A stretch of DNA of 64,000 nucleotides from Candidatus Uhrbacteria bacterium RIFCSPLOWO2_01_FULL_47_17 (GCA_001791305.1 MGEI01000005.1:404208-468207); one strand, 5' to 3'. Numbered from the stretch's first letter, positions 4,528 through 40,487 are shown. Notes: generated from the sequence alone by a model not told the origin. Translations and numbers: made by a program.

Positions 4528-5427
4528 ATGATCGAAGCCATCTCAGAATCCATTGCAAAAGTTGTTGGGGCGCAAAAAGGTCCAACGATTGTGGTGATGG
4601 GCGGAATTCACGGAAATGAACGTACAGGTGTTGAGGTCGTAAAAAAACTTGCGTATCAGTTTGAACATAGCGAAATCAATCTTGCGTCAGGAGTGTTGTA
4701 TTTGATTTTAGGAAATCCAAAAGCGATTGAGCGTGATACCCGGGGGAGTGAAGACCATGCGGATTTGAATCGTTGTTTTAAACGCGACGTTCTCGAATGC
4801 ATTCCCGAAACGTACGAACAGACGCGCGCTCAAGAGATCGCAAAGATTCTCGCCACAGCCGACATCTCAATCGACCTTCACGCCACAAACAAACCTTCCG
4901 TCCCGTTTCTTTGCTGCGCCGTCGACGAGGCACACGAAAAAATTTACCAATGGTTTGACTGCGACCGCGTCCTCGCTGATCCACGCTACATCCTCGGCGG
5001 CGAGCCTGTGACGACGGACGAGTTTATCGATCTCAACGGTGGAGTCGGAATTTGTTATGAGACTGGACAGTCGAAGGATTTGAGTCGCATTGACGAGGTG
5101 TTGAGTGATGTGAGGGATGTGTTGAGGGATCAGAACATGATCGCGGCTATGGCCCCCTCTCCCTTCGAGGGAGAGGGCGGGGGGAGAGGGGTCACACGAT
5201 CTGTTTATGAACTCGTCTCCGTCATCAATCTCACCGAAGCTGGATTTCGATACGAAGGAACTCTCGGTGGCGGGTCGTTCGAGGAATTCACTTCTGGCCA
5301 AACGATCGGCTACATCGGTGATAAACCCGTGGTTGCCGAGTTTGATGGCGTGATCGTGTTCCCAAAGATTCCGGAATTGCAGACCTTTGGGAAGCCGGTG
5401 GTGTATCTCGCAAAGAAAATCAAGTAA
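4528..5427 (+). CDS. Succinylglutamate desuccinylase/aspartoacylase (AstE/AspA) family zinc hydrolase
   Basis: VVMGGIHGNERTG signature and the HADLNRCF region. It carries an in-frame family-A repeat at 5152..5195 that encodes PSPFEGEGGGRGV. Confidence 0.6.
   Translation: MIEAISESIAKVVGAQKGPTIVVMGGIHGNERTGVEVVKKLAYQFEHSEINLASGVLYLILGNPKAIERDTRGSEDHADLNRCFKRDVLECIPETYEQTRAQEIAKILATADISIDLHATNKPSVPFLCCAVDEAHEKIYQWFDCDRVLADPRYILGGEPVTTDEFIDLNGGVGICYETGQSKDLSRIDEVLSDVRDVLRDQNMIAAMAPSPFEGEGGGRGVTRSVYELVSVINLTEAGFRYEGTLGGGSFEEFTSGQTIGYIGDKPVVAEFDGVIVFPKIPELQTFGKPVVYLAKKIK
5152..5195. repeat. Family-A palindromic/G-tract element (GCCCCCTCTCCCTTCGAGGGAGAGGGCGGGGGGAGAGGGGTCAC), in frame within a CDS
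   Basis: A near-identical copy lies at 24672..24715 inside the ComEC-like gene. Related copies lie at 29402..29445, 36916..36960 and 35402..35440. Confidence 0.75.
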
Positions 5428-6824: not shown

Positions 6825-8141
6825 ATGTACGACGTCATCGTAGTCGGCGGTGGAGTTTCTGGAACGGCTTTGCTCTGGGTTTTGTCTCATTACTCGAGCG
6901 CAAAGCGTATTTTGTTCATTGAACGACGCAAGGGCGTTGGAATGGTGAACTCGAACGTCACGAACAATTCGCAGACGCTTCACAAGGGCGACATCGAAAG
7001 CAACTATGCGCTCGACAAAGCGCTCCAAGTGAAGTGGGGTGCGGATCTGCTCAGCGCGTTTGTGGACGAGCATTTGCCGCACGGCAAGCTCGTGATTCCA
7101 AAGCAATTGATCGCCGTCGATCATGAAATCGACGAACTTACGACTCGGTTCCACGCGTTCAAGTCGCACTATCCGGACATCCAACTCCTTGATCGAGAAG
7201 GCATTGCCGCGCTCGAGCCGAAGGTGATGGAAGGTCGTGATCCGAATCAAAAGATCGCGTCGCTCTACAGTCCTCGCGGTCACGCCGTGAACTATCATCT
7301 GCTCGCGGAGAAGTTTCTCGAGCTCGCGCGCCAAGGCGGTGCCGAGATCGATGTGCTTTACAACACGTCCGTTCAAAGCATCGATCGCGCTGCGCATGGA
7401 TTCAATGTGAAAGCGGACGGCGTCATTCATTCGGCGAAGTTTGTGAACGTATCGGCAGGATCGGCGAGCCTCTTGTTCGCTCATGCTCTCGGTTACGAAC
7501 AGGATCTCGCACTTCTTCCCGTTGCCGGCAGTTTTTACACCAACAAGCGTGTTGGTGGATTGCTGCAAGGCAAGGTGTACACCATGCAGAATCCGAAGCT
7601 GCCGTTTGCGGCTGTGCACGGAGATCCAGCGGTGTACAACACGGACGAAACACGTTTCGGTCCGACCGCTCGGCCGCTTCCGCTCCTCGAGCGCGACTCG
7701 TGGCGGACGCTCGCCGAGTTTCTCGACATCGGCACCATAACGCCGCGCGGAATCTGGAGTCTTCTGAAGATCGTCTGCGATCCAACCATCGGCAAGTTCG
7801 CCGCCTGGAATATGGTGTTCGACCTCCCGTGGATCGGCACGCATGCATTCCTGCGCGACGCGCGCAAGATCGTGCCAAGCCTCGGTATCGACGACATCAT
7901 GCTCGACAAAGGCGCAGGCGGTGTGCGCGGTCAGCCGTTCAGTCTCGTCACCGGTCAGATCGTGAAAGGTCGCGATCGCTTCATTCCAAAGGACGCGCCC
8001 ATCGCGTTCACGCTCGCTCCTTCGCCAGGTGCATCGTACTGCCTCGGCAACGCGGTCGAACTCTCGCGCGCGATCGCAGAGCGCACGTCGATCCAGTTCG
8101 ACGAACGGCGTCTCCTTGCAGATCTCCATCCTGCGATGTAA
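6825..8141 (+). CDS. mqo: Malate:quinone oxidoreductase
   Basis: MYDVIVVGGGVSGTAL FAD motif, the Mqo-specific SNVTNNSQTLHKGDIESNY (cf. [21 protein letters not shown]), PKVMEGRDPNQKIA and C-terminal APSPGAS. GGAGGAAGG SD precedes the ATG at 6825. Confidence 0.8.
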   Translation: MYDVIVVGGGVSGTALLWVLSHYSSAKRILFIERRKGVGMVNSNVTNNSQTLHKGDIESNYALDKALQVKWGADLLSAFVDEHLPHGKLVIPKQLIAVDHEIDELTTRFHAFKSHYPDIQLLDREGIAALEPKVMEGRDPNQKIASLYSPRGHAVNYHLLAEKFLELARQGGAEIDVLYNTSVQSIDRAAHGFNVKADGVIHSAKFVNVSAGSASLLFAHALGYEQDLALLPVAGSFYTNKRVGGLLQGKVYTMQNPKLPFAAVHGDPAVYNTDETRFGPTARPLPLLERDSWRTLAEFLDIGTITPRGIWSLLKIVCDPTIGKFAAWNMVFDLPWIGTHAFLRDARKIVPSLGIDDIMLDKGAGGVRGQPFSLVTGQIVKGRDRFIPKDAPIAFTLAPSPGASYCLGNAVELSRAIAERTSIQFDERRLLADLHPAM

Positions 8142-11853: not shown

Positions 11854-12564
11854 CTACGTCAAACGGCTCAAAAACGATTCGATTTTTATGAGATGACTCT
11901 CGATGTTTGCGGAATCGAGCTGGTCGAAGGTCATGGCGTCCGCAATAACGAAGAGTCCAATGGATGTTCGACGAAGTTCCGAAACATATCCACCCACACT
12001 AAGTTTGGCGCCAAGATCCCGGGCGATCGATCGAATGTATGTTCCAGAAGAGCAATGAATCCGGAGGGAAATGTTTGAAAAGTCTGAAAGGTCGGAAAGG
12101 TTTGAAAGGCATTCGATCGAATAGATTTTAACCTTTCGAGGTTCCACAAGCGTTGGTGTTCCGGCCCGAGCTAGTTCGTACAGCTTTTTCCCTTGCACTT
12201 TAATAGCTGCATACGTAGGCGGAACCTGGTCGATTGTCCCTGTAACTGTTTTGAGAGCTTCTTCGATTACGGAAGGGGTTAGGGGCGAGGGGTTGGGGGT
12301 TAGGGTGATTTCCCCCTTTATATCATCTGTTGTCGAGGTTGCCCCCAAAATAAATGTCGCTTCATAACGTTTATCAAGTCCGACGAACTTCTGGAGTTCG
12401 CGTGTGGCCTCTCGAGAAACAGCAATCAAAAGCAAACCGGTTGCAAACGGATCGAGGGTTCCAGCGTGGCCGATGCGTTTTTCGCCCGTTAAACGACGAA
12501 GTCGCGCGACGACATCAAACGAGGTGATTCCTTCTGGTTTGTCGATGAGGATGAAACCTTTCAT
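11854..12564 (-). CDS. truB: tRNA pseudouridine(55) synthase TruB
   Basis: MKGFILIDKPEGITSFDVVARLRRL...GHAGTLDPFATGLL. The start was taken at the internal Met of the longer ORF. An in-frame G-tract repeat at 12272..12316 encodes LTPNPSPLTPS. Confidence 0.8.
   Translation of the reverse strand: MKGFILIDKPEGITSFDVVARLRRLTGEKRIGHAGTLDPFATGLLLIAVSREATRELQKFVGLDKRYEATFILGATSTTDDIKGEITLTPNPSPLTPSVIEEALKTVTGTIDQVPPTYAAIKVQGKKLYELARAGTPTLVEPRKVKIYSIECLSNLSDLSDFSNISLRIHCSSGTYIRSIARDLGAKLSVGGYVSELRRTSIGLFVIADAMTFDQLDSANIESHLIKIESFLSRLT
12272..12316. repeat. G-tract element GGGGTTAGGGGCGAGGGGTTGGGGGTTAGGG (G-quadruplex-capable) inside the truB coding region
   Basis: Five G3+ tracts sit on the plus strand; truB mRNA carries the C-rich complement, translated as TPNPSPLTP. 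A short related CCCTAACCCC lies at 14786..14797. Confidence 0.55.
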
Positions 12565-12733
12565 AATATTCGAATCATACTCGACCGATTGGGCTTTGAC
12601 AAAAGTTCGGGTGCACTTGATTTCATTGACCATTCCCCCCTTTTCTTATACACTCGTCGACAACTGCCAGATTTATTTTTATTTCATGCATGGGTACTCA
12701 TAAAGGGCACCCCTACGATCGTTTCGGCCCCAT

Positions 12734-16116: not shown

Positions 16117-18072
16117 ATGGAACCCGTTTTCGAAGCTCCTTCGCGCACGTCGCGTGTTTGGAAGTGGGTTGTTGGTCGGCCGCGGAGTCTCGCGGACAAT
16201 CAGATTTTTCATCAGCTGTCCCTGATTCCGTTTCTCGCTTGGGTCGGACTCGGTGCGGACGGACTTTCGTCCTCCGCGTACGGCCCACCCGAATCATTCG
16301 CTGCGCTCGGGACACATCGGTGGCTCGCGCTTGCGATGGCCGCGATGACCGCGATCACGGTTCTCATCATCTCGTTTGCCTACATGCGGATCATCGCTTC
16401 GTTCCCGAACGGAGGGGGCGGATACGTTGTCGCAACACGGTCGCTCGGCGCTGTTCCCGGACTCGTTTCCGGTTCCGCCCTTCTTGTCGACTATGTTCTC
16501 ACGGTCACGGTTTCGATCGCGGCTGCGGGTGACGCGCTCTTCAGCTTCATGCCAGAGACCGCCGTTCCATTCAAATTCGGGTTCGAGGTTTTCCTGCTTG
16601 CTGGAATGACCCTCCTCAACTTTCGCGGCGTCAAAGAAGCGATTCTTCCGCTCGTGCCGGTTTTTCTCCTGTTTATTCTGACACACATCATTTTGGTGGT
16701 GGCGGGGTTGATGGGATCTGAAACCGCCGTGCCAATCGCAACGCAGGTTCGTGAAGGTTGGCGCGCGAGTTCCTCACAACTTGGACTCATAGGCGTTCTC
16801 TTGCTTGCCGCACGCGCATGGTCGCTTGGCGGTGGTACGTACACCGGGATTGAAGCGGTTTCAAACGCGATGCCGATCTTGCGTGAACCGCGCGTGAAAA
16901 CCGCGCGCGTGACCATGATCTACATGGCGCTCTCACTTGCGATCATGGCATCCGGTTTGCTCATGGGGTACTTGCTTGTCGATATCCATCCGGTTTCTGG
17001 TCAAACGTTGAACGCGGTTCTCGCGTCGCGTGTGTCAGAGAATTGGATGGGTGGAAAGACCTTCATGATGATCACCCTTCTTGCAGAAGGCGCCCTCCTT
17101 GTGGTGGCCGCGCAAGCTGGCTTTCTTGGAGGCCCACGCGTTCTTGCTAACATGGCACTTGATGGATGGGTGCCGCGTCGTTTTGCCGCATTGTCCCAAC
17201 AGCTTACGGAGCGGAACGGCATTGTGCTTATCGGCGGAACCGCCCTCATCGCCCTTTGGTACACGAAGGGAGATGTGAGTCACTTGGTCGTCATGTACTC
17301 CATCAATGTGTTTCTCACGTTTTCGCTTTCCATGCTTGGCATGCTCAGAAAGTCGTGGGAGAAACGTTCGGCTTCGGACTTGTTCCTTTTCGCGATCGCG
17401 TTTCTATTGTGCGCGTCCATTCTGTGTGTCACCGCCATCGAAAAGTTTTCGCACGGCGGATGGGTCACACTTCTTGTGACCACGCTCCTTGTGGTTCTCT
17501 GTTACGTCATCCGTGCCCATTATCGTGCGGTGGCAAAACGACTGCCTTCGCTCGATGTGGATTTGCCACAGATTGAAATTCCAGAGGAACCGCATTCCTC
17601 CACTCTCAAACCGAATGCCCCGACCGCCGTGATTTTGGTGGGTGGATATAACGGTGTTGGTCATCAGACCCTGAATGTGGTTTTGCGGGCGTTCCCGGGC
17701 CACTACAAAAATGTCATCTTTGTTGCGGCAGGCGCCGTCGACTCTGCCACCATCAAAGACGAACACGAGCTCGAAGTGCTTCGTTCGCGCACAAAGGAAT
17801 CGGTTCATCGATACGTTCTGCTTGGGCAATCGCTCGGTTTGAACGCCGATGGAATGGATTGTGTTGGAACGGATGTCGTTCAAGAGCTCGAGTCGCTTTG
17901 TCTCATTGCGGCAACGGTTCACCCAAACATCACCTTCTTTGCCGGCAAGATCATGTTCGGCCGCGAAAAGTGGTGGCACAACATTCTCCACAACCAAACC
18001 GCGTTCGCCTTGCAAAAGCGCCTCCAATGGGACGGCCACACCATGGTGATCCTCCCCGTCCGTCTTCACTGA
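16117..18072 (+). CDS. Amino acid permease (APC superfamily) with a C-terminal cytoplasmic domain
   Basis: Many hydrophobic segments in the N-terminal ~430 aa (SFAYMRIIASFPNGGGGYVVATRSLG is APC-like) plus a ~200-aa hydrophilic C-terminal domain. The start was taken at MEPVFE. Confidence 0.55.
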   Translation: MEPVFEAPSRTSRVWKWVVGRPRSLADNQIFHQLSLIPFLAWVGLGADGLSSSAYGPPESFAALGTHRWLALAMAAMTAITVLIISFAYMRIIASFPNGGGGYVVATRSLGAVPGLVSGSALLVDYVLTVTVSIAAAGDALFSFMPETAVPFKFGFEVFLLAGMTLLNFRGVKEAILPLVPVFLLFILTHIILVVAGLMGSETAVPIATQVREGWRASSSQLGLIGVLLLAARAWSLGGGTYTGIEAVSNAMPILREPRVKTARVTMIYMALSLAIMASGLLMGYLLVDIHPVSGQTLNAVLASRVSENWMGGKTFMMITLLAEGALLVVAAQAGFLGGPRVLANMALDGWVPRRFAALSQQLTERNGIVLIGGTALIALWYTKGDVSHLVVMYSINVFLTFSLSMLGMLRKSWEKRSASDLFLFAIAFLLCASILCVTAIEKFSHGGWVTLLVTTLLVVLCYVIRAHYRAVAKRLPSLDVDLPQIEIPEEPHSSTLKPNAPTAVILVGGYNGVGHQTLNVVLRAFPGHYKNVIFVAAGAVDSATIKDEHELEVLRSRTKESVHRYVLLGQSLGLNADGMDCVGTDVVQELESLCLIAATVHPNITFFAGKIMFGREKWWHNILHNQTAFALQKRLQWDGHTMVILPVRLH

Positions 18073-19372: not shown

Positions 19373-20257
19373 TCAAGCCGCTTGCGCGTCTGTGTTTGCG
19401 GCACGTTGCGGCTTAAAGAGAAAAAAATTTCGGACTTGTTTCACCTCGTCATCGATCCGAAAGTCGAATGTGTAGGGAATCGTCATTTGACAAGGGTGAA
19501 ACACATATCCCGGATACTGCTCATGGATGCGGGCCATGCCTTCCTGAAGACGCCGTGTCCAATCATCTGCAGAATCTTGGGTGCTGACATTTTCCTGATG
19601 GCGAACACGTTCGATCTGAAACGTTTTGTCTGTTGGATTTGCTTGTTTCACTTGGAGACAAGTCACTGCTTCGTTTTTTTCGCTGAAGACGAACAGATCA
19701 ATTCCAAGCATATATGATTCATAGACGCTTGGTAAATACATCCAGCACTCGTCGAGTTCTGAAATGATTTCGATGGTCTGTGCGCATGCGTGCGCGTAGT
19801 CGCAGCTCATGTTCCAGATGTTCGATCGGATCCCGGGCAGGGCGCCGATTTTGAGCACGCTCGGAATATCTTTCGGATCAAGATCCAAAAAGAGTTCAAC
19901 GAGTTTCTGCTTACACATGGCAACAAGAACGCTGTGAGATCTACGTTCATTGTCCGAGAATTGCGGGTGCATGAAGTGGAACGTCATGCGGTGCAAGATG
20001 ATCGCTTCAAACAGACATTTTTCCACTTCCGACAGCTGCTTTCTGAACGCGATGTATGTGGAGTCGAGCACGCGCTGAAAGAATGCGTTGTGTGTTTGCA
20101 CATGTCGTGTTTTCGAAAGCTCGGGCGCTTCCGGGAGATAGACAGGTTTGTTTTGCAAAAAGTCTTCCACACGACGCAAAATATCTGGCGTGAACATTTT
20201 GCTTCCGCGCACAAGACAGATTTCGTGATGAGTACGCAAGAATGTGTCGAGCATCAC
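19373..20257 (-). CDS. Hypothetical protein (294 aa; the start may instead be the internal Met at 20197)
   Basis: A long intact ORF with its own terminator. No family was recognised; a ThyX-like RHR..S..S.RY motif was looked for and is absent. Confidence 0.35.
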   Translation of the reverse strand: MMLDTFLRTHHEICLVRGSKMFTPDILRRVEDFLQNKPVYLPEAPELSKTRHVQTHNAFFQRVLDSTYIAFRKQLSEVEKCLFEAIILHRMTFHFMHPQFSDNERRSHSVLVAMCKQKLVELFLDLDPKDIPSVLKIGALPGIRSNIWNMSCDYAHACAQTIEIISELDECWMYLPSVYESYMLGIDLFVFSEKNEAVTCLQVKQANPTDKTFQIERVRHQENVSTQDSADDWTRRLQEGMARIHEQYPGYVFHPCQMTIPYTFDFRIDDEVKQVRNFFLFKPQRAANTDAQAA

Positions 20258-20365
20258 CTACCTCATGGAGATGGATATCCCATCTCATCTAAAAAGGACG
20301 ATATGGAAGACTACCAACAGAATCCGGTTGCGTCAAGCCTTTTTGTTCGATATGATCCTTTTACT

Positions 20366-23209
20366 ATGAGCTATAACCATCAGGAAATTGAAAAGAAATG
20401 GCAGGCCAAATGGGCGGCCAATCGAGCGGGTCATGTTGACGAGGCCGCGTCGAGAGACAACGCGCTCTATTATTTGATCATGTTTCCGTACCCATCTGGA
20501 TCTGGTTTGCACGTGGGACACGTGGAATCGCAAGCCGCGATCGATATTTTGGCTCGCATGGAACGCATGCGTGGAAAAAATGTGTTGTGTCCGATCGGAT
20601 ACGATGCCTTCGGTTTGCCCGCCGAGAATTATGCGATCAAGACGGGAGTACACCCTGCCGAGACCACAAAAAAAGCGATCGAGAATTTTCATAACCAAAT
20701 GCAATCGCTTGGTCTTTCGTTTGATTGGTCACGCGAAATTTCGACGGCTGATCCGGAATATTACAAATGGACGCAATGGTTATTTTTGTTGTTCTACAAA
20801 AACGGATTGGCGTACAGAAAAAAATCTCCCGTGAACTGGTGCGAAGGATGCCATACGGTTCTTGCAAACGAGCAGGTTGTCGCGGGAGCTTGTGAGCGTT
20901 GCGGGACGGTTGTTGTGCAAAAAGAGTTGGAGCAATGGTTTTTTCATATCACAAAATATGCAGATCGACTTCTTGCGGGATTGGATTCGATCGACTGGCC
21001 AGAGAAGATTAAGTCGATGCAACGCAACTGGATTGGGAAGAGTGTGGGGGCAGAGATAAACTTTTTAGTGATGAGTGATGAGGGATCAGGGATCAGTGAT
21101 CAGGCGAAAGATTCCCTCAAGTTTACACCGGAGCTAACCGAGTTAATTTATTCAGGAAAAAAGACCAACACGATTCGTTTGGAGAAAAAGAATTTGCAAG
21201 TTGGTGACACGGTTCGACTCATGACTCGATTGAGTGCAACAGAAACGCATTCATTCGCGTTTGCGAAAATTACGGGTGTTGATTTGATAAAGCTGAACGA
21301 CATCTCACTTGATCTCAAAGGACACGAAAGATATGAATCACGAGAAGCCATGTTAAAAAGTTATCAAGATTTTTATGGTGCAACTGTTTCGTTAGAAACA
21401 GAATTTGTTCTTTATCACTTTGCGAACGTTACGCCGCTCATTACCGTCTTCACCACACGCCCAGACACACTCTTCGGCGCAACCTATCTCGTTCTCGCGC
21501 CCGAACACGCACTCGTCGATCAGATCGTCACAGACGAACATCGATCCGAGATCGACACGTATCGAATCGCTGCATCAAAAAAGTCTGTGCTTGAACGAAC
21601 GGAATTACAAAAAGAAAAGACGGGAGTCTTCACAGGTGCCTATGCAATCAATCCGGCAAATGGAGAACAGATTCCAGTCTGGATCGCGGATTATGTGATC
21701 ACAACTTACGGAACAGGAGCGATTATGGCGGTACCCGCACACGATGCGCGCGATTTTGAGTTTGCAAAGAAATATGAGTTGCCAATCAAAGTTGTCGTGA
21801 AGCCGGCCGTGCTGCAAACGCTCATGTCCGAGACTCTCGCAGTCTCTCACGGTGCACAGTCTTCCGTCGAGATCGTCTCGGATTGTTTTACAGAACAAGG
21901 AATTGCGATCAACTCCGCGTTTCTCGATGGCCTCTCGACTGCGGACGCAAAACAAAAGATGATTGCTTGGCTCGAAGAAAAACATATTGGAAATGCAAAA
22001 ACGACTTTTCGTCTCCGTGACTGGCTTGTTTCTCGCCAGCGATACTGGGGAGCGCCGATCCCGATTATTTGGTGTGAAAATTGCGGTGCGCAGCCGGTTG
22101 AGGAAGCACAGCTTCCTGTCGAACTTCCAACCGACGTCGATTTCTCCGCCATAGGCGGATCCGCCTCCGGCGGAAAACCAACAGGTGAATCACCGCTCGT
22201 CGATTCAAACACATTTCACAATGTGAAATGTCCGACGTGCGGAAAAGCCGCGCGTCGCGAATCCGACACGATGGACACGTTCGTCGATTCGTCCTGGTAC
22301 TATCTTCGCTACACAGATCCGCACAATACGAATGCGTTCGCGGACAAATCAAAAATTGATTATTGGTGCCCGGTCGACCTGTATCTCGGCGGTGCAGAAC
22401 ATGCTGTGATGCATTTGTTGTACGCGCGATTTTTTGCGTACGCGCTTCACGATCTGGGCTATCTTGGCTTCGAAGAGCCATTCTTGAAACTCAAAAATCA
22501 AGGTCTCATTCTTGGTCCGGACGGCGACAAGATGTCAAAATCAAAAGGGAACGTGGTGAACCCGGACGAGATGGTTTCCGAATATGGCGCGGACGCACTT
22601 CGTTTGTATGAAATGTTCATGGGCCCACTCGAAGACGCAAAGCCGTGGGATACGAAAGGCGTAGTCGGCGTTCGTCGTTTTCTCGATAAGGTTCACAATT
22701 TGTGCATTCGCGTTATAGGCGGGGTCCCCAGACCCCGCGACGATGCGCATACGAAATTGATTCATAAATCCATCAAAAAAATCACGTCCGATCTCGAAGA
22801 ATTAAAATTCAACACAGCCATCTCTCAGCTCATGATTGTTGTGAATGAATTCTCGAGCGCGTCTTCGATCAACAAAGAAACGTTCGAAACGTTTTTGAAA
22901 CTCCTCGCGCCTCTCGCACCACACCTCGCCGAGGAACTGTGGGAGAAGCTTGGACACACGACGTCGATCTTTGCAGAGTCATGGCCTGTGTTCGATTCAA
23001 CACTCATCGTCGACGATGTGGTCGACATGGGTGTTCAAGTAAATGGAAAAGTTCGCGGGACGATCTCGCTTGCACCAAGTGCGGACGAGGCCACGGCAAA
23101 AGAACTCGCGTTTGCAAATGTGAATGTGATGAAATGGATTGATGGCAAAGAGATTATGAAGATTGTGTATGTGCCAGGAAAGATTTTTAACATTGTTGTA
23201 AAGGAATAG
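20366..23209 (+). CDS. leuS: Leucyl-tRNA synthetase with an inserted ASCH-like domain
   Basis: Starts MSYNHQEIEKKWQ, with PYPSGSGLHVGHV (the HIGH motif), the TTRPDTLFGATYLVLAPEH editing domain and KMSKS. A ~115-aa insertion (21067..21420) sits between the catalytic and editing regions. A family-B repeat lies in frame at 22715..22742. Confidence 0.9.
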   Translation: MSYNHQEIEKKWQAKWAANRAGHVDEAASRDNALYYLIMFPYPSGSGLHVGHVESQAAIDILARMERMRGKNVLCPIGYDAFGLPAENYAIKTGVHPAETTKKAIENFHNQMQSLGLSFDWSREISTADPEYYKWTQWLFLLFYKNGLAYRKKSPVNWCEGCHTVLANEQVVAGACERCGTVVVQKELEQWFFHITKYADRLLAGLDSIDWPEKIKSMQRNWIGKSVGAEINFLVMSDEGSGISDQAKDSLKFTPELTELIYSGKKTNTIRLEKKNLQVGDTVRLMTRLSATETHSFAFAKITGVDLIKLNDISLDLKGHERYESREAMLKSYQDFYGATVSLETEFVLYHFANVTPLITVFTTRPDTLFGATYLVLAPEHALVDQIVTDEHRSEIDTYRIAASKKSVLERTELQKEKTGVFTGAYAINPANGEQIPVWIADYVITTYGTGAIMAVPAHDARDFEFAKKYELPIKVVVKPAVLQTLMSETLAVSHGAQSSVEIVSDCFTEQGIAINSAFLDGLSTADAKQKMIAWLEEKHIGNAKTTFRLRDWLVSRQRYWGAPIPIIWCENCGAQPVEEAQLPVELPTDVDFSAIGGSASGGKPTGESPLVDSNTFHNVKCPTCGKAARRESDTMDTFVDSSWYYLRYTDPHNTNAFADKSKIDYWCPVDLYLGGAEHAVMHLLYARFFAYALHDLGYLGFEEPFLKLKNQGLILGPDGDKMSKSKGNVVNPDEMVSEYGADALRLYEMFMGPLEDAKPWDTKGVVGVRRFLDKVHNLCIRVIGGVPRPRDDAHTKLIHKSIKKITSDLEELKFNTAISQLMIVVNEFSSASSINKETFETFLKLLAPLAPHLAEELWEKLGHTTSIFAESWPVFDSTLIVDDVVDMGVQVNGKVRGTISLAPSADEATAKELAFANVNVMKWIDGKEIMKIVYVPGKIFNIVVKE
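22715..22742. repeat. Family-B palindrome ATAGGCGGGGTCCCCAGACCCCGCGACGA inside leuS (in frame, encoding IGGVPRPRDD)
   Basis: 27 of 29 nt are identical to the intergenic copy at 34038..34069. The same core occurs at 6722 and 26057. Confidence 0.7.
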
Positions 23210-23212
23210 GGT

Positions 23213-24523
23213 ATGAACTTGGTGATCATCGGCACGGGCTATGTTGGCCTTACGTCTGCGCTCGGATATACACAACTCGGTCATCGTGTTGCGTGTGTTG
23301 ATGTGAATGCGGAAAAAATTGCGCAATTGGATCTGGGACATGTTCCGTTTTTTGAATCGGGTTTATCGGATGTTCTTCATACAGCGCAAGAAGCCGGTTC
23401 GATTATTTTTACGACAGACCTCGCATCTGTTTTGTCCGAAGCGGAACTTGTGTTGTTTGCCGTTGGAACACCGTCGGCCTCTACGGGCGAAGCGAACTTG
23501 TCGTTTTTATTGCATGCAGCGCGTGATGTTGGTCGTCATTTGGATCACGAAGTATTGCTCGTCGTGAAGAGTACGGTTCCGGTCGGAACAAATCGTCGTG
23601 TTCTTGAGGTCGCGCGCGAGGCGATGACCGTTGCCGGTCGAGGAGATCTCACAAGTTTGATTCAAATCGCGTCGCTCCCAGAATTTTTGCGAGAGGGAAG
23701 TGCCATTGCGGATTTTATGGCGCCGGAGCGAATCGTTGTTGGCGCGGATGATGACGTTGCCTATCGACTTGTGGAAGAACTCCATCGCGGCATTCAAACC
23801 ACATGGGTGAAGACAACGATCGAGACAGCAGAGCTTACGAAGTACGCGGCGAACGCAATGCTCGCAACAAAGATTTCGTTTATCAATGAGATCGCAAATA
23901 TCGCAGAGCGCACCGGAGCGAATGTGGTCGACATTGCGCATGCGATCGGACTCGACTCGAGAATCGGGCCGCATTTTTTGAACGCAGGCATCGGCTACGG
24001 TGGTTCATGCTTCCCGAAGGACGTCTCGGCGCTGCGACAAATTGCGGGCGCGAATGGATATGATTTTAAATTGTTGTCTGCTGTGATTGAGGTGAACAAT
24101 CATCAACGCGATCTTTTTTTGAAAAAAATTCAAGAGATGCTTGGAAACATGAAGGGCCGACGCATTGCGGTCTGGGGACTCGCGTTCAAACCGGGAACAG
24201 ATGATGTGCGTGAATCGGCGGCGATTGATCTTGTACGAAGACTCTACGCGATCGGTGCGGAAGTTTGCGCGTTTGATCCGCAAGCGATCGAGACGGCGCG
24301 AAAAATTTTGCCGGATGGAATTCAGTTCGCGGGAACCGCGATCGATGCAGCCGAAGGGGCAGAAGCACTCATCGTTCTTACCGAGTGGCCAGAGTTCCGC
24401 GATGTTTCATTCTCGACCCTCAAAGCACGCATGCTCGATCCGATTGTTTTTGATGGACGCAACTGCCTGAAAGATGCACACCTCGAAAAATTTGGATTCA
24501 CCTATGTTGGTGTCGGTATTTAA
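23213..24523 (+). CDS. ugd: UDP-glucose 6-dehydrogenase / nucleotide-sugar dehydrogenase
   Basis: MNLVIIGTGYVGLTSA NAD-binding motif and the catalytic GGSCFPKD. Confidence 0.85.
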   Translation: MNLVIIGTGYVGLTSALGYTQLGHRVACVDVNAEKIAQLDLGHVPFFESGLSDVLHTAQEAGSIIFTTDLASVLSEAELVLFAVGTPSASTGEANLSFLLHAARDVGRHLDHEVLLVVKSTVPVGTNRRVLEVAREAMTVAGRGDLTSLIQIASLPEFLREGSAIADFMAPERIVVGADDDVAYRLVEELHRGIQTTWVKTTIETAELTKYAANAMLATKISFINEIANIAERTGANVVDIAHAIGLDSRIGPHFLNAGIGYGGSCFPKDVSALRQIAGANGYDFKLLSAVIEVNNHQRDLFLKKIQEMLGNMKGRRIAVWGLAFKPGTDDVRESAAIDLVRRLYAIGAEVCAFDPQAIETARKILPDGIQFAGTAIDAAEGAEALIVLTEWPEFRDVSFSTLKARMLDPIVFDGRNCLKDAHLEKFGFTYVGVGI

Positions 24524-26036
24524 AAAGATCACAACATCGCCATCAAGAACATTCGCCCTTCTCGCGGCGATGTTTTGTTTCGGCATCCTCGTAGGTCCAC
24601 TCGCGATCGGCATCTCGACGTCGGTCTTCGGCGTGCTCCTCGCGATCTGTCTCCTGAGCTTCTCATTCATAGCCCCCTCTCCCTTCGAGGGAGAGGGCGG
24701 GGGGAGAGGGGTCACAAGTGCATCTTCTCGAAACACATTCCGCATCTTATGCCTTGCTCTCTTCTTCCTCGTCTTGGGATTATTTTGCTACCAACAAAGT
24801 GAAATTCCAAAAAACATTCCCACGGTTCGTGACTTCACCGGTTCTCAGATCCGCATCGAAGGTGATGTGATCGCCGAGTCATCCATCAAAACAAAATCAC
24901 AACAAGTGACAATTGGTCGCGTGAAAGTTGCTGACGTGCCCGTATTCGGAAACGTGCTCGTAACTGTCTTGAGGGAACAGTCGATCGCATACGGCGATCA
25001 CCTCGTCTTCTCTTGCTCCATGCAAATTCCACGACCATTCAGTGGATTCGCGTATGATCGCTTCCTCCAAGCAAAGGGAACCTTTGCGCTTTGTCGCTTT
25101 CCGCACGATCTCGAACGCGCGCCCTCGAATGCGTTCTCGCTTGTTGCTTCGATCCTCACATTCAAACGAGACGTTGTCTCAACCATGAAACACGTCTTTC
25201 CCGAACCGCATGCTTCGTTCCTCTTTGGTCTCGTCTTCGGAGGAAATGTTGGTCTTGAGCGAACGATCCAAGACGAGTTTCGAGAAACCGGCATGTCACA
25301 CATCCTCGCCGCCTCCGGTTTCAATGTCTCGCTTTTCACCTTCGTCTTCTTCGGCTGGATCGTTCAGCACCTCGGCCGTAAACGCGGCGCGATCGCAACC
25401 GCAATTTTGCTCGCTGTGTATGTGATCATGGCCGGCGCAACCGCCGCCGTGGTTCGCGCCGCAATCTTCGGAGGTGTTCTCCTTATCGGTTCCATGATCG
25501 GGCGACGCGCGTCGATCGTGAATACGCTTCTGCTCACCGCATCCGTCATGTTGTTTTACAATCCGCGTTGGCTCCTCGACGACGTTGGTTTTCAACTCTC
25601 GTTCGTCGCCTTCGCCGCAATCATTTTCATCGCGCCGCGTCTCGAAGAAAAACTCGAGTTCGTTCCCGAACACATCGGCATCCGCAACGCCCTCGCCGGT
25701 TCACTCTCTGCAATTTTTCTCACGCTTCCCATCATCCTCTGGCAGTTCGGCTCGATCTCGCTTGTCGCCCCATTCGCAAACGTTTTCGTGCTCCCACTCG
25801 TTCCATTCCTCATGTTCTACACAATCGCGATTCTGCCGATCGCCTGGCTTTCGACTTCCATCGGACAACTCATCGCTCTGCCGGCGCTCTTCGGATCGAA
25901 ATACATTCTCGCGATAGTCTCGATATTCGCCTCGCCAACATTCGCCTCCGTTTCCGTTCCGTTCGCGCAGACAGCCGCGGTCATCGTTGTGATTGGGCTC
26001 GCCATCGGATCCGTTGTCTTTTTTCGACGGGCGTGA
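24504..26036 (+). CDS. ComEC/Rec2-like membrane protein (DUF4131 plus competence domain)
   Basis: FGLVFGGNVGLERTIQDEFRETGMSHILAASGFNVSLF, the ComEC core, and multiple TM helices. An in-frame family-A repeat lies at 24672..24715. The start was taken at an internal Met because the long ORF overlaps the end of ugd. Confidence 0.6.
   Translation: MLVSVFKKITTSPSRTFALLAAMFCFGILVGPLAIGISTSVFGVLLAICLLSFSFIAPSPFEGEGGGRGVTSASSRNTFRILCLALFFLVLGLFCYQQSEIPKNIPTVRDFTGSQIRIEGDVIAESSIKTKSQQVTIGRVKVADVPVFGNVLVTVLREQSIAYGDHLVFSCSMQIPRPFSGFAYDRFLQAKGTFALCRFPHDLERAPSNAFSLVASILTFKRDVVSTMKHVFPEPHASFLFGLVFGGNVGLERTIQDEFRETGMSHILAASGFNVSLFTFVFFGWIVQHLGRKRGAIATAILLAVYVIMAGATAAVVRAAIFGGVLLIGSMIGRRASIVNTLLLTASVMLFYNPRWLLDDVGFQLSFVAFAAIIFIAPRLEEKLEFVPEHIGIRNALAGSLSAIFLTLPIILWQFGSISLVAPFANVFVLPLVPFLMFYTIAILPIAWLSTSIGQLIALPALFGSKYILAIVSIFASPTFASVSVPFAQTAAVIVVIGLAIGSVVFFRRA
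24672..24715. repeat. Family-A element in frame within the ComEC-like gene (encodes PSPFEGEGGGRGV)
   Basis: 43 of 44 nt are identical to the copy at 5152..5195. Confidence 0.75.
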
Positions 26037-29401: not shown

Positions 29402-29445
29402 GCCCCCTCTTCTCATCGAGGAGAGGGCGGGGGGAGAGGTGTCCC
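29402..29445. repeat. Family-A variant element immediately upstream of the GNAT start codon
   Basis: GCCCCCTCTTCTCATCGAGGAGAGGGCGGGGGGAGAGGTGTCCC, directly followed by the ATG. Confidence 0.65.
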
Positions 29446-30009
29446 ATGCGTATTCGTCGATTGAATTTCAGTGATCTTCGGCAAGTGGTTCTGTTGTATT
29501 GCGGGTGTTTCACAGAAGCTCCGTGGTTCGAATGCTTCGATCCGGAAGAAGTGTGGCAAGAGTTCGTGTTGCTGTTTGCGCAAGCGCTTCCAAAAAAGGT
29601 TCGTGCAAAACACAAAGAACGCGCAGAGTTTCTCGTATGTGAAAATGAGGGTCAAATCGTGGGCGCTGCGATCGGATTTCCAATGGCTCAGAAACCAGAT
29701 GTCGCCACCCTTGTGACGACAGACACGGAACACACATTTTATTTTTCCGAACTGTTCGTGAGTTCGATGTATCGCAAGCAAGGTGTCGCGAAAGCGCTGA
29801 TTCGTGCGCGTATGAAAAAAGCTCGCGCGCGCGGGTTCACACACGGCGTGGTGCGCACCTCGATTGCGCAGTCCGTCATTCAACATCTCTATGTCGACGA
29901 GCTCGGGTTTTCGATCGTTGCGACACAAGAGGTCACATCGACAAAAGTGATCGATGGCGTGAAACAGGACGTCCCTGACACGCGTGTGATCATGGCCGGA
30001 AAAATCTAG
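29446..30009 (+). CDS. GNAT family N-acetyltransferase
   Basis: Motif A VSSMYRKQGVAKALI in a 187-aa protein. Two hairpin terminators follow (30006..30030, 30041..30075). Confidence 0.6.
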   Translation: MRIRRLNFSDLRQVVLLYCGCFTEAPWFECFDPEEVWQEFVLLFAQALPKKVRAKHKERAEFLVCENEGQIVGAAIGFPMAQKPDVATLVTTDTEHTFYFSELFVSSMYRKQGVAKALIRARMKKARARGFTHGVVRTSIAQSVIQHLYVDELGFSIVATQEVTSTKVIDGVKQDVPDTRVIMAGKI

Positions 30010-30107
30010 GAGAGGGAGGGGCATGCCCCTCCCTTACGTAAACGTACAGGCGCACGACATGCGCCTGTTTTTTGTGTATGAAAAAACCATCTCGAGATTC
30101 GAGATGG

Positions 30108-32072: not shown

Positions 32073-32162
32073 GTTGTCTCCTTCCTGATTTTCGCATACC
32101 GACACGATTGTCAGTGGGCGAAGAAAAGGGGCGATGTAAACATCGCCAGATCGTATCGTGTC

Positions 32163-32192
32163 CGTAGGGGAGGGTCGCGACCCTCCCCTACG
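32163..32192. repeat. Family-C palindrome CGTAGGGGAGGGTCGCGACCCTCCCCTACG between the radical SAM gene and nadE
   Basis: Paralog of 1703..1726 with the same AATGC flank. Confidence 0.6.
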
Positions 32193-32205
32193 AATGCGCA
32201 TCGCA

Positions 32206-33165: not shown

Positions 33166-33248
33166 TGAATGAACTCCTTCACCTTCACACGTCGACGAAA
33201 TTGTCGGCGGGTGGAGAAAAGGATGATGCATGTGCATCATCAAGCCTG

Positions 33249-33962: not shown

Positions 33963-34037
33963 CGTTGTTTCCTTCACCTTCACATGCCGACACAATTGTC
34001 AGCATGCGGAGAAAAGGGGTGATTGAATCACCCAGGT

Positions 34038-34069
34038 TATGGGCGGGGTCACCAGACCCCGCGACGAAT
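34038..34069. repeat. Family-B palindrome TATGGGCGGGGTCACCAGACCCCGCGACGAAT downstream of pncB
   Basis: Near-identical to the copy inside leuS. Confidence 0.65.
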
Positions 34070-35371: not shown

Positions 35372-35506
35372 AGAAATGTGCCCCCGAATGCGTTCCACGA
35401 AGCCCCTCCTGCGAAGGAGGGGTTGGGGGAGGTTGCGCTCAGGAAAACGTTTCTTGAAGGAAAAATGTTCCCGGGGCTGAATGATTCAACCCCGAGACGA
35501 GATGAC

Positions 35507-36895
35507 TTACAATTCGCTGATGCGACGTTGCAAATCTGTTTCTGGAAAGAAGGCGAGTTCTGCGGTTGCGGTTGCGCTTCGACGAATATTCATCCAGTTT
35601 AGTTCGCCAAGCGCGACGCCGTCGCAGAAACCGCGCATAGGGCGCTTTTCTTGGTTCATGGCTTCGAATCGAATGCTTGTTTCGATCGGAAGCGGTTCGT
35701 TCTTCCAATGATGGGAGCACACGCAGCTTCCAACAAGTTGGAGCATTTGTGTGCCGGGGATGAGGCGTGATCCGCCCATGCGGTACGCATACCCCGTTGA
35801 TCCAGCCGCCGTTGAGACGAGCATGATGTCTGACATGATGGGATCGAATTTCACTTCGCCGTTCATGAGGACACGTGTCCAAATTGTTTGCCCGCTGAGG
35901 CGATCCACCCATGCATCGTTGAATGCGAGCATGTTGGATTGTGTGCCGTCAACAGATTCCGCCTCTATGTATAACAGCGATTCTGTGTACGTCTTGAGTT
36001 CGAGGTGTGATTGCAGTTGATCAACAATCTTCGTTTCGTCGAAGTCGTTGAGCAAGAATCCTTTCGTGCCGCGATTGAGTCCGAGGAAGGGAACATGGTC
36101 ACGCCACAGACGACGAATCGTATGAAGCATGAATCCATCGCCCCCAATCACGACAATGCAATTGTGTTCACCGATGGGTGTCTGAAACGCATCTGATAAT
36201 CTCTTGCCGATCGCAACCGTACTTTCATTGCGGTCGTTTGCGACAACAAGCGGTCGAAGTGTTTCTTGAAATTCCGCAGGACCTCGCATGATGCGTCCCG
36301 TGAATAACTGATGTCGTGCGATGTATTGACCAATCGCTGGTGACACAAGATCGTCGATTGACTGATGCCTGAAGATCCGTTCGCGAATTTCCGAACTGGA
36401 TCCACGGAGCGTCGGTTCGATGATCGTGTGGTGTGGCGGAAGATCTTCGGGCACGCATTCGATTCCATGGCGCATGTGCACGAGGAAGTGAAGTGTGTTC
36501 CAGACTTCCTGTCCGCAAAACCACGTTCGATGAATCTCGGACAATCCATGCGCGCCACCGGCAACGATGTCGGCGCCGATCACGTGACAGATTTCATGAT
36601 TCGGATACAGCGCACGATAGCGCTGATCTATGTCGAACGAACGCGTAAACACAGATTGCTCGAGATCTGTGAGATCAATTTCGACACGCGGGATGCGGCC
36701 GAACGCGAGGTCACAGAGTGCTGCACGAGACGCAAGTGAAAGATCGTTCGTCGTCTCTTTGTCCGGTCGCGGCCCGCACGGAAGAACGATGAGACGATCA
36801 TCCGGTCCGAGCTTACTCGCAAGTTTCTGAACAATCGCCTCATGATGCAATCCCGGAGGATTGAAACTGCCACCGTACAGAAAAATCTTTGGCAT
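35507..36895 (-). CDS. Bifunctional NaMN/NMN adenylyltransferase (NadD-like) - NAD kinase (NadK) fusion
   Basis: N-terminal IFLYGGSFNPPGLHHEAI and SSEIRERI; C-terminal VVIGGDGFMLHTIR (GGDG) and TAAGSTGYAYRMGG; 462 aa. Confidence 0.7.
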   Translation of the reverse strand: MPKIFLYGGSFNPPGLHHEAIVQKLASKLGPDDRLIVLPCGPRPDKETTNDLSLASRAALCDLAFGRIPRVEIDLTDLEQSVFTRSFDIDQRYRALYPNHEICHVIGADIVAGGAHGLSEIHRTWFCGQEVWNTLHFLVHMRHGIECVPEDLPPHHTIIEPTLRGSSSEIRERIFRHQSIDDLVSPAIGQYIARHQLFTGRIMRGPAEFQETLRPLVVANDRNESTVAIGKRLSDAFQTPIGEHNCIVVIGGDGFMLHTIRRLWRDHVPFLGLNRGTKGFLLNDFDETKIVDQLQSHLELKTYTESLLYIEAESVDGTQSNMLAFNDAWVDRLSGQTIWTRVLMNGEVKFDPIMSDIMLVSTAAGSTGYAYRMGGSRLIPGTQMLQLVGSCVCSHHWKNEPLPIETSIRFEAMNQEKRPMRGFCDGVALGELNWMNIRRSATATAELAFFPETDLQRRISEL

Positions 36896-36915
36896 CTTGT
36901 ACTCCTGTGTTCGAA

Positions 36916-36960
36916 GCCCCCTCTCCCTTCGAGGGAGAGGGCTGGGGAGAGGGTTTGTCC
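36916..36960. repeat. Family-A element upstream of the nadD-nadK start
   Basis: GCCCCCTCTCCCTTCGAGGGAGAGGGCTGGGGAGAGGGTTTGTCC. Confidence 0.65.
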
Positions 36961-37042: not shown

Positions 37043-37813
37043 CTACTCTTGGATGAATCTTTCCGCGATCAGGAGTTTACGGAGGATATGCGGGCTCGAT
37101 TTGTCGACGACGTAGAGGTTCTCTCTTTTATCGGCGAACGTGCCAGCGACGAGTTCGGCGGCGATCTCGTCTGCCGCACGACCCGAGCCTTTCACCACAA
37201 TGGTGGGCCAACCTTTCTTGATCGAGCGCATGACTTCATCGCGCGTGATCGCACCGCCGTTCCAGGCAATGACGCCGGCGCGGTGGAAGCCGCCGTATTG
37301 CGTGAGCTGATCCATGAGTCCGAACGCGGCATCCAAGTCGCCATCCCAACCGAGCTTGCCTTCCGCCCCGTCTTGAACGAGGAGGATTGCGTTCATGCTC
37401 GGGTTTGGCGCGGTGCCGTAGTCGTCGAGTACGAGGCGAGACTCTTCGACGAGACGCAGAACGTCCGTGCGAGGAGTCGAACCGAGTGCGACACACTTTG
37501 GATTGCCCGCGGCAACAACGCCAGGAACATCTGTGACCATCGGATCGAGGTTGCCGTCTTTGTCGAATTGGCGCGTGCCACCCGACCAGATCATGCCCTC
37601 GAAACCCTTGAATGCGATCTGGAAAAAATCCATCATCGCTTTCTTATCATCGGCATTCATCCCTTTGCATCCGCCGCTGATGCGAATGCAGACTTTACGC
37701 GCCGCACGCGTTGCCATGAGGGCGAACGTTGCGGGGAGTTGAGCTCCCTTGTCTTGAATGATCAGAACAGTCCTGCCGTCCTGACCAGTTACCGTTTTTG
37801 CGGACATGAACAC
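37043..37813 (-). CDS. SLOG/LOG-like Rossmann-fold protein, paralog 1
   Basis: RISGGCKGM..., WSGGTRQFD..., WNGGAITRDEV... and VVKGSGRAADEI parallel the LOG motifs GGG.G.M / PGG.GT.EE. Confidence 0.4.
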   Translation of the reverse strand: MFMSAKTVTGQDGRTVLIIQDKGAQLPATFALMATRAARKVCIRISGGCKGMNADDKKAMMDFFQIAFKGFEGMIWSGGTRQFDKDGNLDPMVTDVPGVVAAGNPKCVALGSTPRTDVLRLVEESRLVLDDYGTAPNPSMNAILLVQDGAEGKLGWDGDLDAAFGLMDQLTQYGGFHRAGVIAWNGGAITRDEVMRSIKKGWPTIVVKGSGRAADEIAAELVAGTFADKRENLYVVDKSSPHILRKLLIAERFIQE

Positions 37814-39818: not shown

Positions 39819-40487
39819 TTACATTATCTCTACATATTCCAGCTTCTTGTGCTTGAACTTATAGAGCTCCGCCGGGCGGTTTGCCTCGCCGCCTCGTTTC
39901 TTTCCAATCGGAACGATCAGATCAAGAGCCAAAATGCGCTTACGGAAGTTGCGTTTATCAACAGTTGTATCAAGAATAATCTCGTAAACACGCTGTAAAT
40001 CTGTGAGGGTGAACTCTTCGGAAAGCAGGCTCCAGGCGATGTTTGTGTACTGGAGTCGGCTTTTGAGCCGTGTAATTGCTTCTTTTGCGATGTGCTTATG
40101 ATCATAAGCCAATTCCGGGAGTTTTTTCACGGGCCACCACTTCACGTCTTGGTACTTATCGGTTGTTTTGAGCTCGACTTCCGATGAGGAAATAAGCGCA
40201 AACGACGCGACCGAGATCACACGCTCGAGTTGATCGCGTTCAATGGAATCAAACGTTTTGAGCTGTTCGAGGTAGACGTTCGAAACACCGGTTTGTTCTT
40301 TTAAGATCCGAACGGCCGTCTCTTCGGTTGTCTCTGTATTCTCGACGCGTCCGCCAGGGAAGGCCCAGAGTCCTGTATACGGCGACTTTTTCATTTGGAT
40401 GAGAAGGGCGCAGAGTTCGCCGTCTTTGACGGTGAAGATGACGGTATCAACCGCGACGATGATCGATTGCTTTGGGGGATTGGGCAT
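39819..40487 (-). CDS. nrtR: NrtR-like Nudix-related transcriptional regulator of NAD metabolism (Nudix plus C-terminal wHTH)
   Basis: Nudix box GGRVENTETTEETAVRILKEQTGV. The C-terminal ~90 aa (FTLTDLQRVYEIIL...RNFRKRILALDLIVPIGKKR...) fits the NrtR winged-helix domain. It heads an NAD-salvage gene array. Confidence 0.55.
   Translation of the reverse strand: MPNPPKQSIIVAVDTVIFTVKDGELCALLIQMKKSPYTGLWAFPGGRVENTETTEETAVRILKEQTGVSNVYLEQLKTFDSIERDQLERVISVASFALISSSEVELKTTDKYQDVKWWPVKKLPELAYDHKHIAKEAITRLKSRLQYTNIAWSLLSEEFTLTDLQRVYEIILDTTVDKRNFRKRILALDLIVPIGKKRGGEANRPAELYKFKHKKLEYVEIM

Follow-up and report, generated by a model that had tools for sequence, protein, structure and literature searches.

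In-frame copies of a BoxC-type triplex repeat in protein-coding genes of a Candidatus Uhrbacteria genome

The stretch of DNA analyzed here, referred to as the window, comprises 64,000 nt of Candidatus Uhrbacteria bacterium RIFCSPLOWO2_01_FULL_47_17 (MGEI01000005.1:404208-468207), a member of the Candidate Phyla Radiation (CPR, or Patescibacteria), with a GC content of 49% and about 91% coding sequence. Two of its genes, encoding an AstE-like protein and a ComEC-like protein, share a short GC-rich repeat. The exact 44-mer GCCCCCTCTCCCTTCGAGGGAGAGGGCGGGGGGAGAGGGGTCAC is found at 5152-5195 and 24672-24715, in both cases on the plus strand, and no such occurrence is expected by chance (100 dinucleotide shuffles). 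When the flanks are included, 47 of the 48 nucleotides are identical between 5149-5196 and 24669-24716. The first copy is in frame within the AstE-like gene's open reading frame (ORF), where it occupies a variable interdomain linker, and the second is in frame within the ComEC ORF; both are read as APSPFEGEGGGRGVT. An earlier reading of the same DNA, made from the sequence alone (hereafter the sequence-only reading), had proposed a nearly identical element of about 44 nt in these two genes, keeping the frame and adding a peptide in each, and our analysis agrees on both counts. It had also pointed to diverged copies outside genes, and three were indeed present at 29402-29445, 36916-36960 and 35402-35440, all of them intergenic (Table 1).

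The general build of the element consists of a C-rich arm, a loop of 3-5 nt, a complementary G-rich arm, a spacer of 0-4 nt and another G-rich arm, the mirror image of the former. A three-arm finder based on this build (C-arm, G-arm and mirror-arm) returned exactly five sites in the window, all on the plus strand, with stems of 8-11 and at most one mismatch per arm, compared to none in 20 dinucleotide shuffles. Decayed copies were also sought in the window with a relaxed motif, and nothing was found beyond shuffle noise. Two variants can be distinguished, namely variant A with the arms CCCTCTCCC / GGGAGAGGG and variant B, present at 35402, with the arms CCCCTCCT / AGGAGGGG / GGGGAGGT. The hairpin CCCTCTCCC-TTCGA-GGGAGAGGG, already recognized in the sequence-only reading, is exact in three window copies. 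The G-quadruplex potential suggested there was supported by pattern matches with four G tracts at 5169-5191, 24689-24711 and 36933-36953, a potential that has already been published (Kaplan et al., 2016; PMC5100583). An Rfam scan of the window gave two tRNAs and no other family above threshold.

Table 1. Copies of the repeat and associated genes; coordinates refer to the window unless a relative is named.
Feature	Coordinates	Strand	Description
Host gene 1, AstE-like	4528..5427	+	succinylglutamate desuccinylase/aspartoacylase family, 299 aa; Pfam AstE_AspA_cat
Copy 1, variant A	5152..5196	+	45-nt (15-codon) unit inside the AstE-like gene, read APSPFEGEGGGRGVT, aa 209-223
Copy 1, C-arm	5155-5163	+	
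Copy 1, loop	5164-5168	+	TTCGA
Copy 1, G-arm	5169-5177	+	
Copy 1, spacer	5178-5181	+	CGGG
Copy 1, third arm	5182-5190	+	
Host gene 2, ComEC/Rec2 family	24474..26036	+	Pfam DUF4131 + Competence
Copy 2, variant A	24672..24716	+	same as copy 1, same reading phase; ComEC loop past the N-terminal transmembrane helices
Copy 3, diverged variant A	29402..29445	+	intergenic, 3' of a terminator-like hairpin, abuts the GNAT ATG at 29446
GNAT acetyltransferase gene	29446..30009	+	start codon directly after copy 3
Copy 5, variant B	35402..35440	+	CCCCTCCT gcga AGGAGGGG ttg GGGGAGGT; between two minus-strand NAD-cluster genes
Copy 4	36916..36960	+	intergenic, between minus-strand genes 35507-36895 and 37043-37813
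Leucyl-tRNA synthetase (LeuRS)	20366-23209		
LeuRS, relative L244	6221-8623		
LeuRS, relative L245	6265-8685		
LeuRS, relative L246	5539-8679		
LeuRS, relative L247	5806-8592		

The repeat is a BoxC / PIT / TMECO intrastrand-triplex motif, as evidenced by its architecture, its agreement with a published pattern and direct BLAST identity. The sequence-only reading had regarded it as an undescribed family, which was incorrect; a full-text literature search with the arm sequences led to the study of Holder et al. (2015; PMC4666352). According to that study, the BoxC repeat of E. coli is the same entity as PIT (potential intrastrand triplex; Hoyne and Maher, 2000, 2002) and TMECO, which follows the pattern CCCTCNCCC N3-6 GGGNGAGGG N3 GGGNGAGGG, was counted 3610 times among 262 proteobacterial genomes, folds in vitro into a stable triplex and is associated with local genomic variability (PMC4666352). 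Copy 4 fits the published pattern exactly at 36919-36953, and copies 1 and 2 fit it at 5155-5190 and 24675-24710 if the second loop is allowed 4 nt instead of 3. A blastn search with 36913-36960 (48 nt) against complete E. coli genomes gave matches in 4252 of 5426, mostly at 90-95% identity, with a median of five places per genome and coverage of at least 80% of the query in 2863 genomes. None of the eight listed hits had an annotated feature beneath it. The same search also placed copy 4 at seven plasmid locations.

Variants with asymmetric arms allow the third arm to be read either as a mirror or as a direct repeat. With a match of at least 8/9 as threshold, the mirror rule applied to 14 such variants from other phyla and the direct-repeat rule to 4, while the respective counts in Uhrbacteria were 2 and 0. 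As far as sequence can tell, a third arm obeying the mirror rule is the signature of a purine-motif intrastrand triplex and not of an alternative hairpin, and the BoxC-type build as such is predicted to be able to form a hairpin, a purine-motif intrastrand triplex (G.G:C, A.A:T, T.A:T) or a G-quadruplex. In E. coli K-12 all 23 BoxC copies lie between genes, and the family has been described as "always located intergenically" (PMC4666352). Copies 1 and 2 of the window, both in frame, lie within genes. Being intergenic is no structural requirement of the family but a habit of its E. coli members.

Orthologs of the AstE-like protein illustrate how variable the occupied site is. Most of them have about 292 aa vs. 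299 aa here. The ortholog in L001 (84% amino acid identity) has no element, the one in L004 (87%) carries a different three-arm element at the same linker but in the opposite orientation, and the one in L005 (81%) presents an apparent decayed remnant at the linker together with a different in-frame element at another loop. An AlphaFold model of the protein, obtained with an ortholog alignment as input, had a mean predicted local distance difference test (pLDDT) score of 91.7. Its sole segment with pLDDT <50 was aa 211-221, which falls inside the insert (aa 209-223), between helix 188-201 and strand 225-234, so that in the model the insert lies in a disordered surface linker. A diversity-generating retroelement core, consisting of a bAvd accessory protein and a reverse transcriptase, was observed in L001 (2999-4432), 5-7 kb upstream of the AstE-like gene; the stretch of the window that matches this region of L001 starts only at the RNase III gene.

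Concerning ComEC, orthologs at 61-68% identity have no insert after the N-terminal transmembrane helices, while variant B, or a form of it in decay, is present at this site in the four closest relatives (L244, L245, and L246 being the ones named); L247 is empty. Variant B at the ComEC site of L244, L245, and L246 is the same variant as copy 5 of the window. Moreover, L244 and L245 have one further in-frame element each at another ComEC loop. The true start of the window gene is probably the methionine of MLVS, a few codons downstream of the ORF start. That the peptide is an insertion in a surface loop, as anticipated by the sequence-only reading, is in line with one AstE ortholog and the distant ComEC orthologs that have no insert, as well as with the disorder modeled at the AstE insert. 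Its proposal of an insertion requires a qualification, as the closest relatives already hold an element at both sites, but of a different variant. Overall, related copies differ in position, variant and orientation among close relatives.

The element was also traced beyond the window. A census of the fetched Uhrbacteria-type loci yielded 16 three-arm elements, of which 11 were inside called genes, in both orientations. In L246, the TruB gene contains a full three-arm element (199-232). The TruB gene of the window (11854-12633, minus strand) contains a G-tract-rich stretch, GGAAGGGGTTAGGGGCGAGGGGTTGGGGGTTAGGGTGA, at 12271-12305 (+), which encodes TPNPSPLTPS when read along the gene and has a conserved counterpart in L005; this stretch may be an old decayed copy. 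An identical variant A, loop included, occurs in the YebC gene of another low-GC genome (L151), where a different frame is used and the peptide is LPPLPSRERAGGEGF. The exact 23-nt hairpin with the TTCGA loop was found in GTDB genomes in at least 118 stretches from many phyla; the matches listed include Planctomycetota, Chloroflexota, Proteobacteria, Nitrospira, Rokubacteria and others, and nearly all of them have a third arm on one of the two sides. The source Uhrbacteria genome was not among these listed matches. In-frame copies flanked by Pfam domain matches were present among the GTDB matches from other phyla in chorismate synthase, methionyl-tRNA synthetase (MetRS), DnaE and a PyrK-like protein, where opposite-strand readings such as SLEGRG and PSPSKGEG occur. 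The MetRS copy lies in the linker preceding the tRNA-binding domain and the DnaE copy inside HHH_6. When JGI metagenomes were scanned for the G arms of variant A, 93 loci were obtained; these belonged without exception to other lineages and had other loops, and the source organism was not represented. A protein search with a 43-aa concatenate of three sense-frame peptides gave no candidate host proteins.

The BoxC-type arm pattern was additionally observed in viral contigs of IMG/VR (L006-L125), in at least 120 stretches and often several times per contig. Holder et al. found no association of TMECO with phages or plasmids (PMC4666352). The viral-contig copies could represent host DNA flanking prophages, or phages could act as vectors of the family.

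We believe that the repeat is here a selfish, stop-free member of a known repeat family, 45 nt (15 codons) in length, which is kept only in the permissive loops of a gene-dense genome, and we assign this explanation a probability of about 0.7. It builds on the observed family membership, the identity of the copies, their lineage-specific presence and turnover, their location in loops and the use of several frames and both orientations. In this Uhrbacteria genome the BoxC-type element would be selfish DNA whose copies spread to further sites. With about 91% of the window taken up by coding sequence, most potential target sites lie within genes, and a copy landing there would survive only if its net length is a multiple of three, as with the 15 codons of variant A, if it brings no stop codon and if the Gly/Pro/Ser/Glu/Arg-rich peptide that it adds is placed in a disordered loop or linker. 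None of the six frames has a stop in the GC-rich core, and the 45-nt unit is open in five of them, the sole stop coming from the TCAC tail, and any frame of the element encodes a Gly/Pro/Ser/Glu/Arg-rich peptide. The intergenic location of three of the five window copies, despite the high coding density, is as expected if most genic insertions have been purged.

The two identical window copies would be recent products of the copying process. Since relatives already have other variants at the same loops, these copies are to be seen as replacements or re-insertions and not as first insertions. A filter by selection suffices for the reuse of sites, because the AstE linker is the sole low-confidence stretch of the protein. 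As for the process itself, our best guess would be the recognition, on the lagging-strand template, of a single strand folded into a hairpin or triplex. The agent might be a trans-acting enzyme of the HUH/Y1 type, as in repetitive extragenic palindromic sequences (REPs) with their REP-associated tyrosine transposases (RAYTs) and in IS200/IS605, or else template switching at a stalled fork; such copying would leave no target duplication. The strand that has the G arms and a positive GC skew would then be the lagging-strand template, GC skew being positive across the window.

Several results weigh against this explanation. The folding energies of RNA and DNA, although strong, did not surpass those of dinucleotide shuffles (z = -1.0 and -1.5), so that they are no evidence by themselves. 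In 13 of 15 elements the G arms are on the window-syntenic plus strand, but this orientation bias is weak when orthologous copies are counted once. A Pfam search of the 64-kb window, in which several ORFs had no Pfam match, revealed no transposase, integrase or Y1/HUH gene, and no transposase has ever been linked to BoxC (PMC4666352). Finally, neighboring codons differ at the empty orthologous sites, so that the insertion boundaries of the triplex-type element, and with them any target duplication, are unreadable.

Some of the evidence would also suit a process without transposition, in which ectopic gene conversion or template switching takes place between resident copies and the family spreads mainly by homogenizing existing sites. 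Both genic window copies are located where relatives have an element (variant B at ComEC in L244-L246, the AstE element of L004 and the remnant of L005), and variants A and B coexist in the window. We nevertheless consider it unlikely that conversion accounts for the pattern. The AstE copy is opposite in orientation to the L004 copy and could not be produced in this way, and the homology between variants is limited to approximately 8-10 nt of C and G runs. In addition, the AstE site particular to L005 and the extra ComEC sites of L244 and L245 are empty in every other compared genome, and new sites have therefore been created. A de novo convergent origin, e.g., through template-switch mutations at stalled forks, would attribute the cross-phylum similarity to the tiny sequence space of G-rich mirror sequences and not to shared ancestry or mobility. 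Such an origin would be compatible with arm sequences that are lineage-specific within a shared architecture, with the finding of the same arms combined with many different loops in unrelated metagenomic contigs (GC 0.43-0.76), and with the known generation of perfect hairpins by template switching (PMC10710096). It seems improbable, however, in view of the 44-48 identical nucleotides at two loci, including the loop and the non-structural TCAC tail, of the full variant with its loop in the L151 YebC gene and of the zero occurrences expected from shuffles.

A recruited function has to be considered as well, either as a nucleic-acid switch (hairpin, G-quadruplex or triplex) acting on transcription, translation pausing or ribosome binding, or as a selected, flexible linker peptide. 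The third arm of copy 3, GGAGAGG, is located 6 nt upstream of the GNAT ATG, and in the relative L244 a different variant at 16477-16507 lies 4 nt before the orthologous ATG. Inserts are found at domain boundaries, and a G-quadruplex/hairpin switch has been proposed for E. coli members (PMC5100583). On the other hand, tests of E. coli PIT elements detected neither promoter nor terminator activity, nor a triplex footprint in vivo (PMC4666352). Purine-motif triplexes do not form in RNA. Moreover, genic copies use several frames and both orientations, and their patchy presence among close relatives, together with the decay of copies in L246 and L005, argues against a conserved function. A recruited function is possible for individual copies but in general disfavored, and we see little chance that it explains the repeat. 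An artefact of assembly or binning, i.e., a repeat collapsed into genes of a metagenome-assembled genome, was also taken into account, since a short repeat from a metagenomic assembly is at issue. It is hardly credible, as the same in-frame inserts are encoded by two independent assemblies, namely a 9.4-kb ENA contig (P0001) and the NCBI genome of a Candidatus Uhrbacteria RIFCSPHIGHO2_12_FULL (P0121), the flanks are collinear with orthologs at both sides, and analogous in-frame copies exist in many other assemblies. The artefact was rejected on the agreement between the independent assemblies.

Other small repeats were observed at the locus. A second very small mobile family is represented by a 30-nt double hairpin, TCCGCCATAGGCGGATCCGCCTCCGGCGGA, which is present at 22145-22174 (+) in LeuRS and is read SAIGGSASGG. 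The exact empty site, GATTTC/AAACC, is found in L245 and L247, and there is no target duplication. In L246 the same 30-mer occupies another LeuRS site at 7858-7887 (AATTTC/.../GAAGAG), at which the window, L244, L245, and L247 are empty. Both insertions are preceded by TTTC, and their precision supports a precise, duplication-free mechanism in this lineage. A third family is represented by the hairpin GGCGGGGTCNCCAGACCCCGC with the shared flanks GTTATRGG...GCGACGA, which occurs at 22712-22743 in LeuRS and at 34036-34067 between genes, just past the NAPRTase stop. Its LeuRS copy is in frame (VIGGVPRPRD) and common to L245, while it is absent from L244 and L247. LeuRS also varies in length among close relatives (800-1046 aa), with whole domains inserted before the editing domain: ASCH in the window and L247, a Ham1p-like domain in L246 and none in L244 and L245. 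The LeuRS ORF of the window (19790-23209, 1139 aa) begins too far upstream, the true start being MSYNHQ at 20366. Furthermore, genes of Uhrbacteria and Chloroflexota that carry the triplex-type element also contain other recurrent in-frame repeat peptides, e.g., SRAQRSEAEGS, IASEAKQSQ and LRAKRSNL (L246 8146-8229 in LeuRS, L233 and L229), which suggests several more coding-tolerant repeat families.

GTAG-headed perfect palindromes, GTAGGGGAGGGTCGYGACCCTCCCCTAC, are located at 1702-1735, 30010-30043 and 32164-32197, one of them directly after the GNAT stop. They resemble REPs with a GTAG/CTAC foot recognized by RAYT, and no RAYT gene was seen in the window. In addition, a 48-nt motif with the internal palindrome CGACNNAATTGTCG is present in three copies (32082-32129, 33175-33222 and 33970-34017), and in each case it is found at the 5' end of one of the minus-strand NAD-cluster genes (NadE, a radical-SAM protein and an unknown gene). 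The window also encodes an NrtR-type Nudix regulator (39819-40487), of which the motifs may be the operators.

Regarding novelty, the repeat family, its triplex architecture, its G-quadruplex potential and, in Rickettsia, palindromic repeats inserted in frame are already known. As far as the searchable literature shows, what is new is the occurrence of BoxC/PIT-type elements in CPR, their mostly intragenic and translated state and their turnover at the same permissive loops; a literature search for the encoded peptides and for in-frame repeats in CPR returned nothing. The finding thus places a known family in a new host and a new genic setting, and the element itself is not of a new kind. Few short bacterial repeats are as widely conserved as BoxC/PIT/TMECO, and the family is now extended to coding DNA, with in-frame copies in housekeeping genes of a CPR bacterium and several other phyla. 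It also accounts for odd inserts rich in Gly and Pro, a class that inflates and confuses the alignment and annotation of proteins in metagenome-assembled genomes, and natural insertion polymorphisms could reveal the mechanism of mobilization. A broader proposal, of which we are rather doubtful, is that BoxC/PIT-type repeats constitute an active mobile family, dependent on the folding of a single strand and shared across phyla, which colonizes the coding sequence of gene-dense genomes (CPR, Dehalococcoidia and others) and re-occupies the same permissive loops again and again. If it were true, essential proteins, among them aminoacyl-tRNA synthetases, DnaE and ComEC, would regularly owe variation in loop length and linkers to such repeats, and the filled, empty and replaced sites would offer a first handle on how BoxC moves, a question that dates from the 1990s.

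Among known systems, Rickettsia palindromic elements (RPEs) are palindromic repeats inserted in frame in conserved genes, tolerated on the protein surface and polymorphic among relatives; they measure about 100-150 bp, are richer in AT and are restricted to Rickettsia. The sequence-only reading had compared the repeat to them, and the comparison stands with respect to behavior, since the copies are in frame, borne by loops, absent in some orthologs and polymorphic in relatives. In-frame insertion, surface regions and polymorphism are common to both. As the same behavior is seen in genes of other phyla, it is not confined to CPR. Membership in the RPE family, in contrast, was ruled out by the length of 38-45 nt, the Uhrbacteria host and the absence of any Rfam family but tRNA above threshold in the window, and the element is further set apart by its third mirror arm, its cross-phylum occurrence and a sequence unrelated to that of RPEs. 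Other candidates were discarded as well: a miniature inverted-repeat transposable element with target duplication, as no direct repeat flanks copies 1 and 2 and the element has one hairpin plus a tail without terminal inverted repeats; an intein or bypass element, as the unit is in frame and stop-free; and a conserved functional peptide, as several frames and orientations are used.

The element resembles REP/RAYT and IS200/IS605 systems in being a short GC-rich hairpin without terminal inverted repeats or visible target duplication, and its possible strand bias is consistent with folding on the lagging-strand template. It differs in lacking a conserved GTAG head and in that the window yielded no RAYT or Y1 gene, and REPs are extragenic by definition. 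Yeast mitochondrial GC clusters and cyanobacterial small dispersed repeats are also tiny GC-rich palindromic mobile sequences that can sit harmlessly in coding regions, but they belong to other sequence families and hosts and do not require a mirror third arm. The E. coli motifs HPG1 and HPG2 have been described as conserved switches between G-quadruplex, hairpin and duplex (Kaplan et al., 2016; PMC5100583). They are the same sequences (GGGAGAGGG..GGGGTGAGGG) viewed as G-quadruplexes, but were reported solely between genes, near the 3' ends of operons, and coding copies were not described (PMC5100583). The closest system is BoxC/PIT/TMECO itself, which has the same three-arm architecture with the same arms (CCCTCTCCC / GGGAGAGGG / GGGAGAGGG) and is likewise dispersed, multi-copy, variable among close relatives and without an associated transposase. 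The published census covers 262 proteobacterial genomes, whereas the host here belongs to CPR; the second loop of variant A has 4 nt instead of 3; and while the K-12 copies are all intergenic, two of the five copies in the window and 11 of the 16 at related loci lie in genes and are translated.

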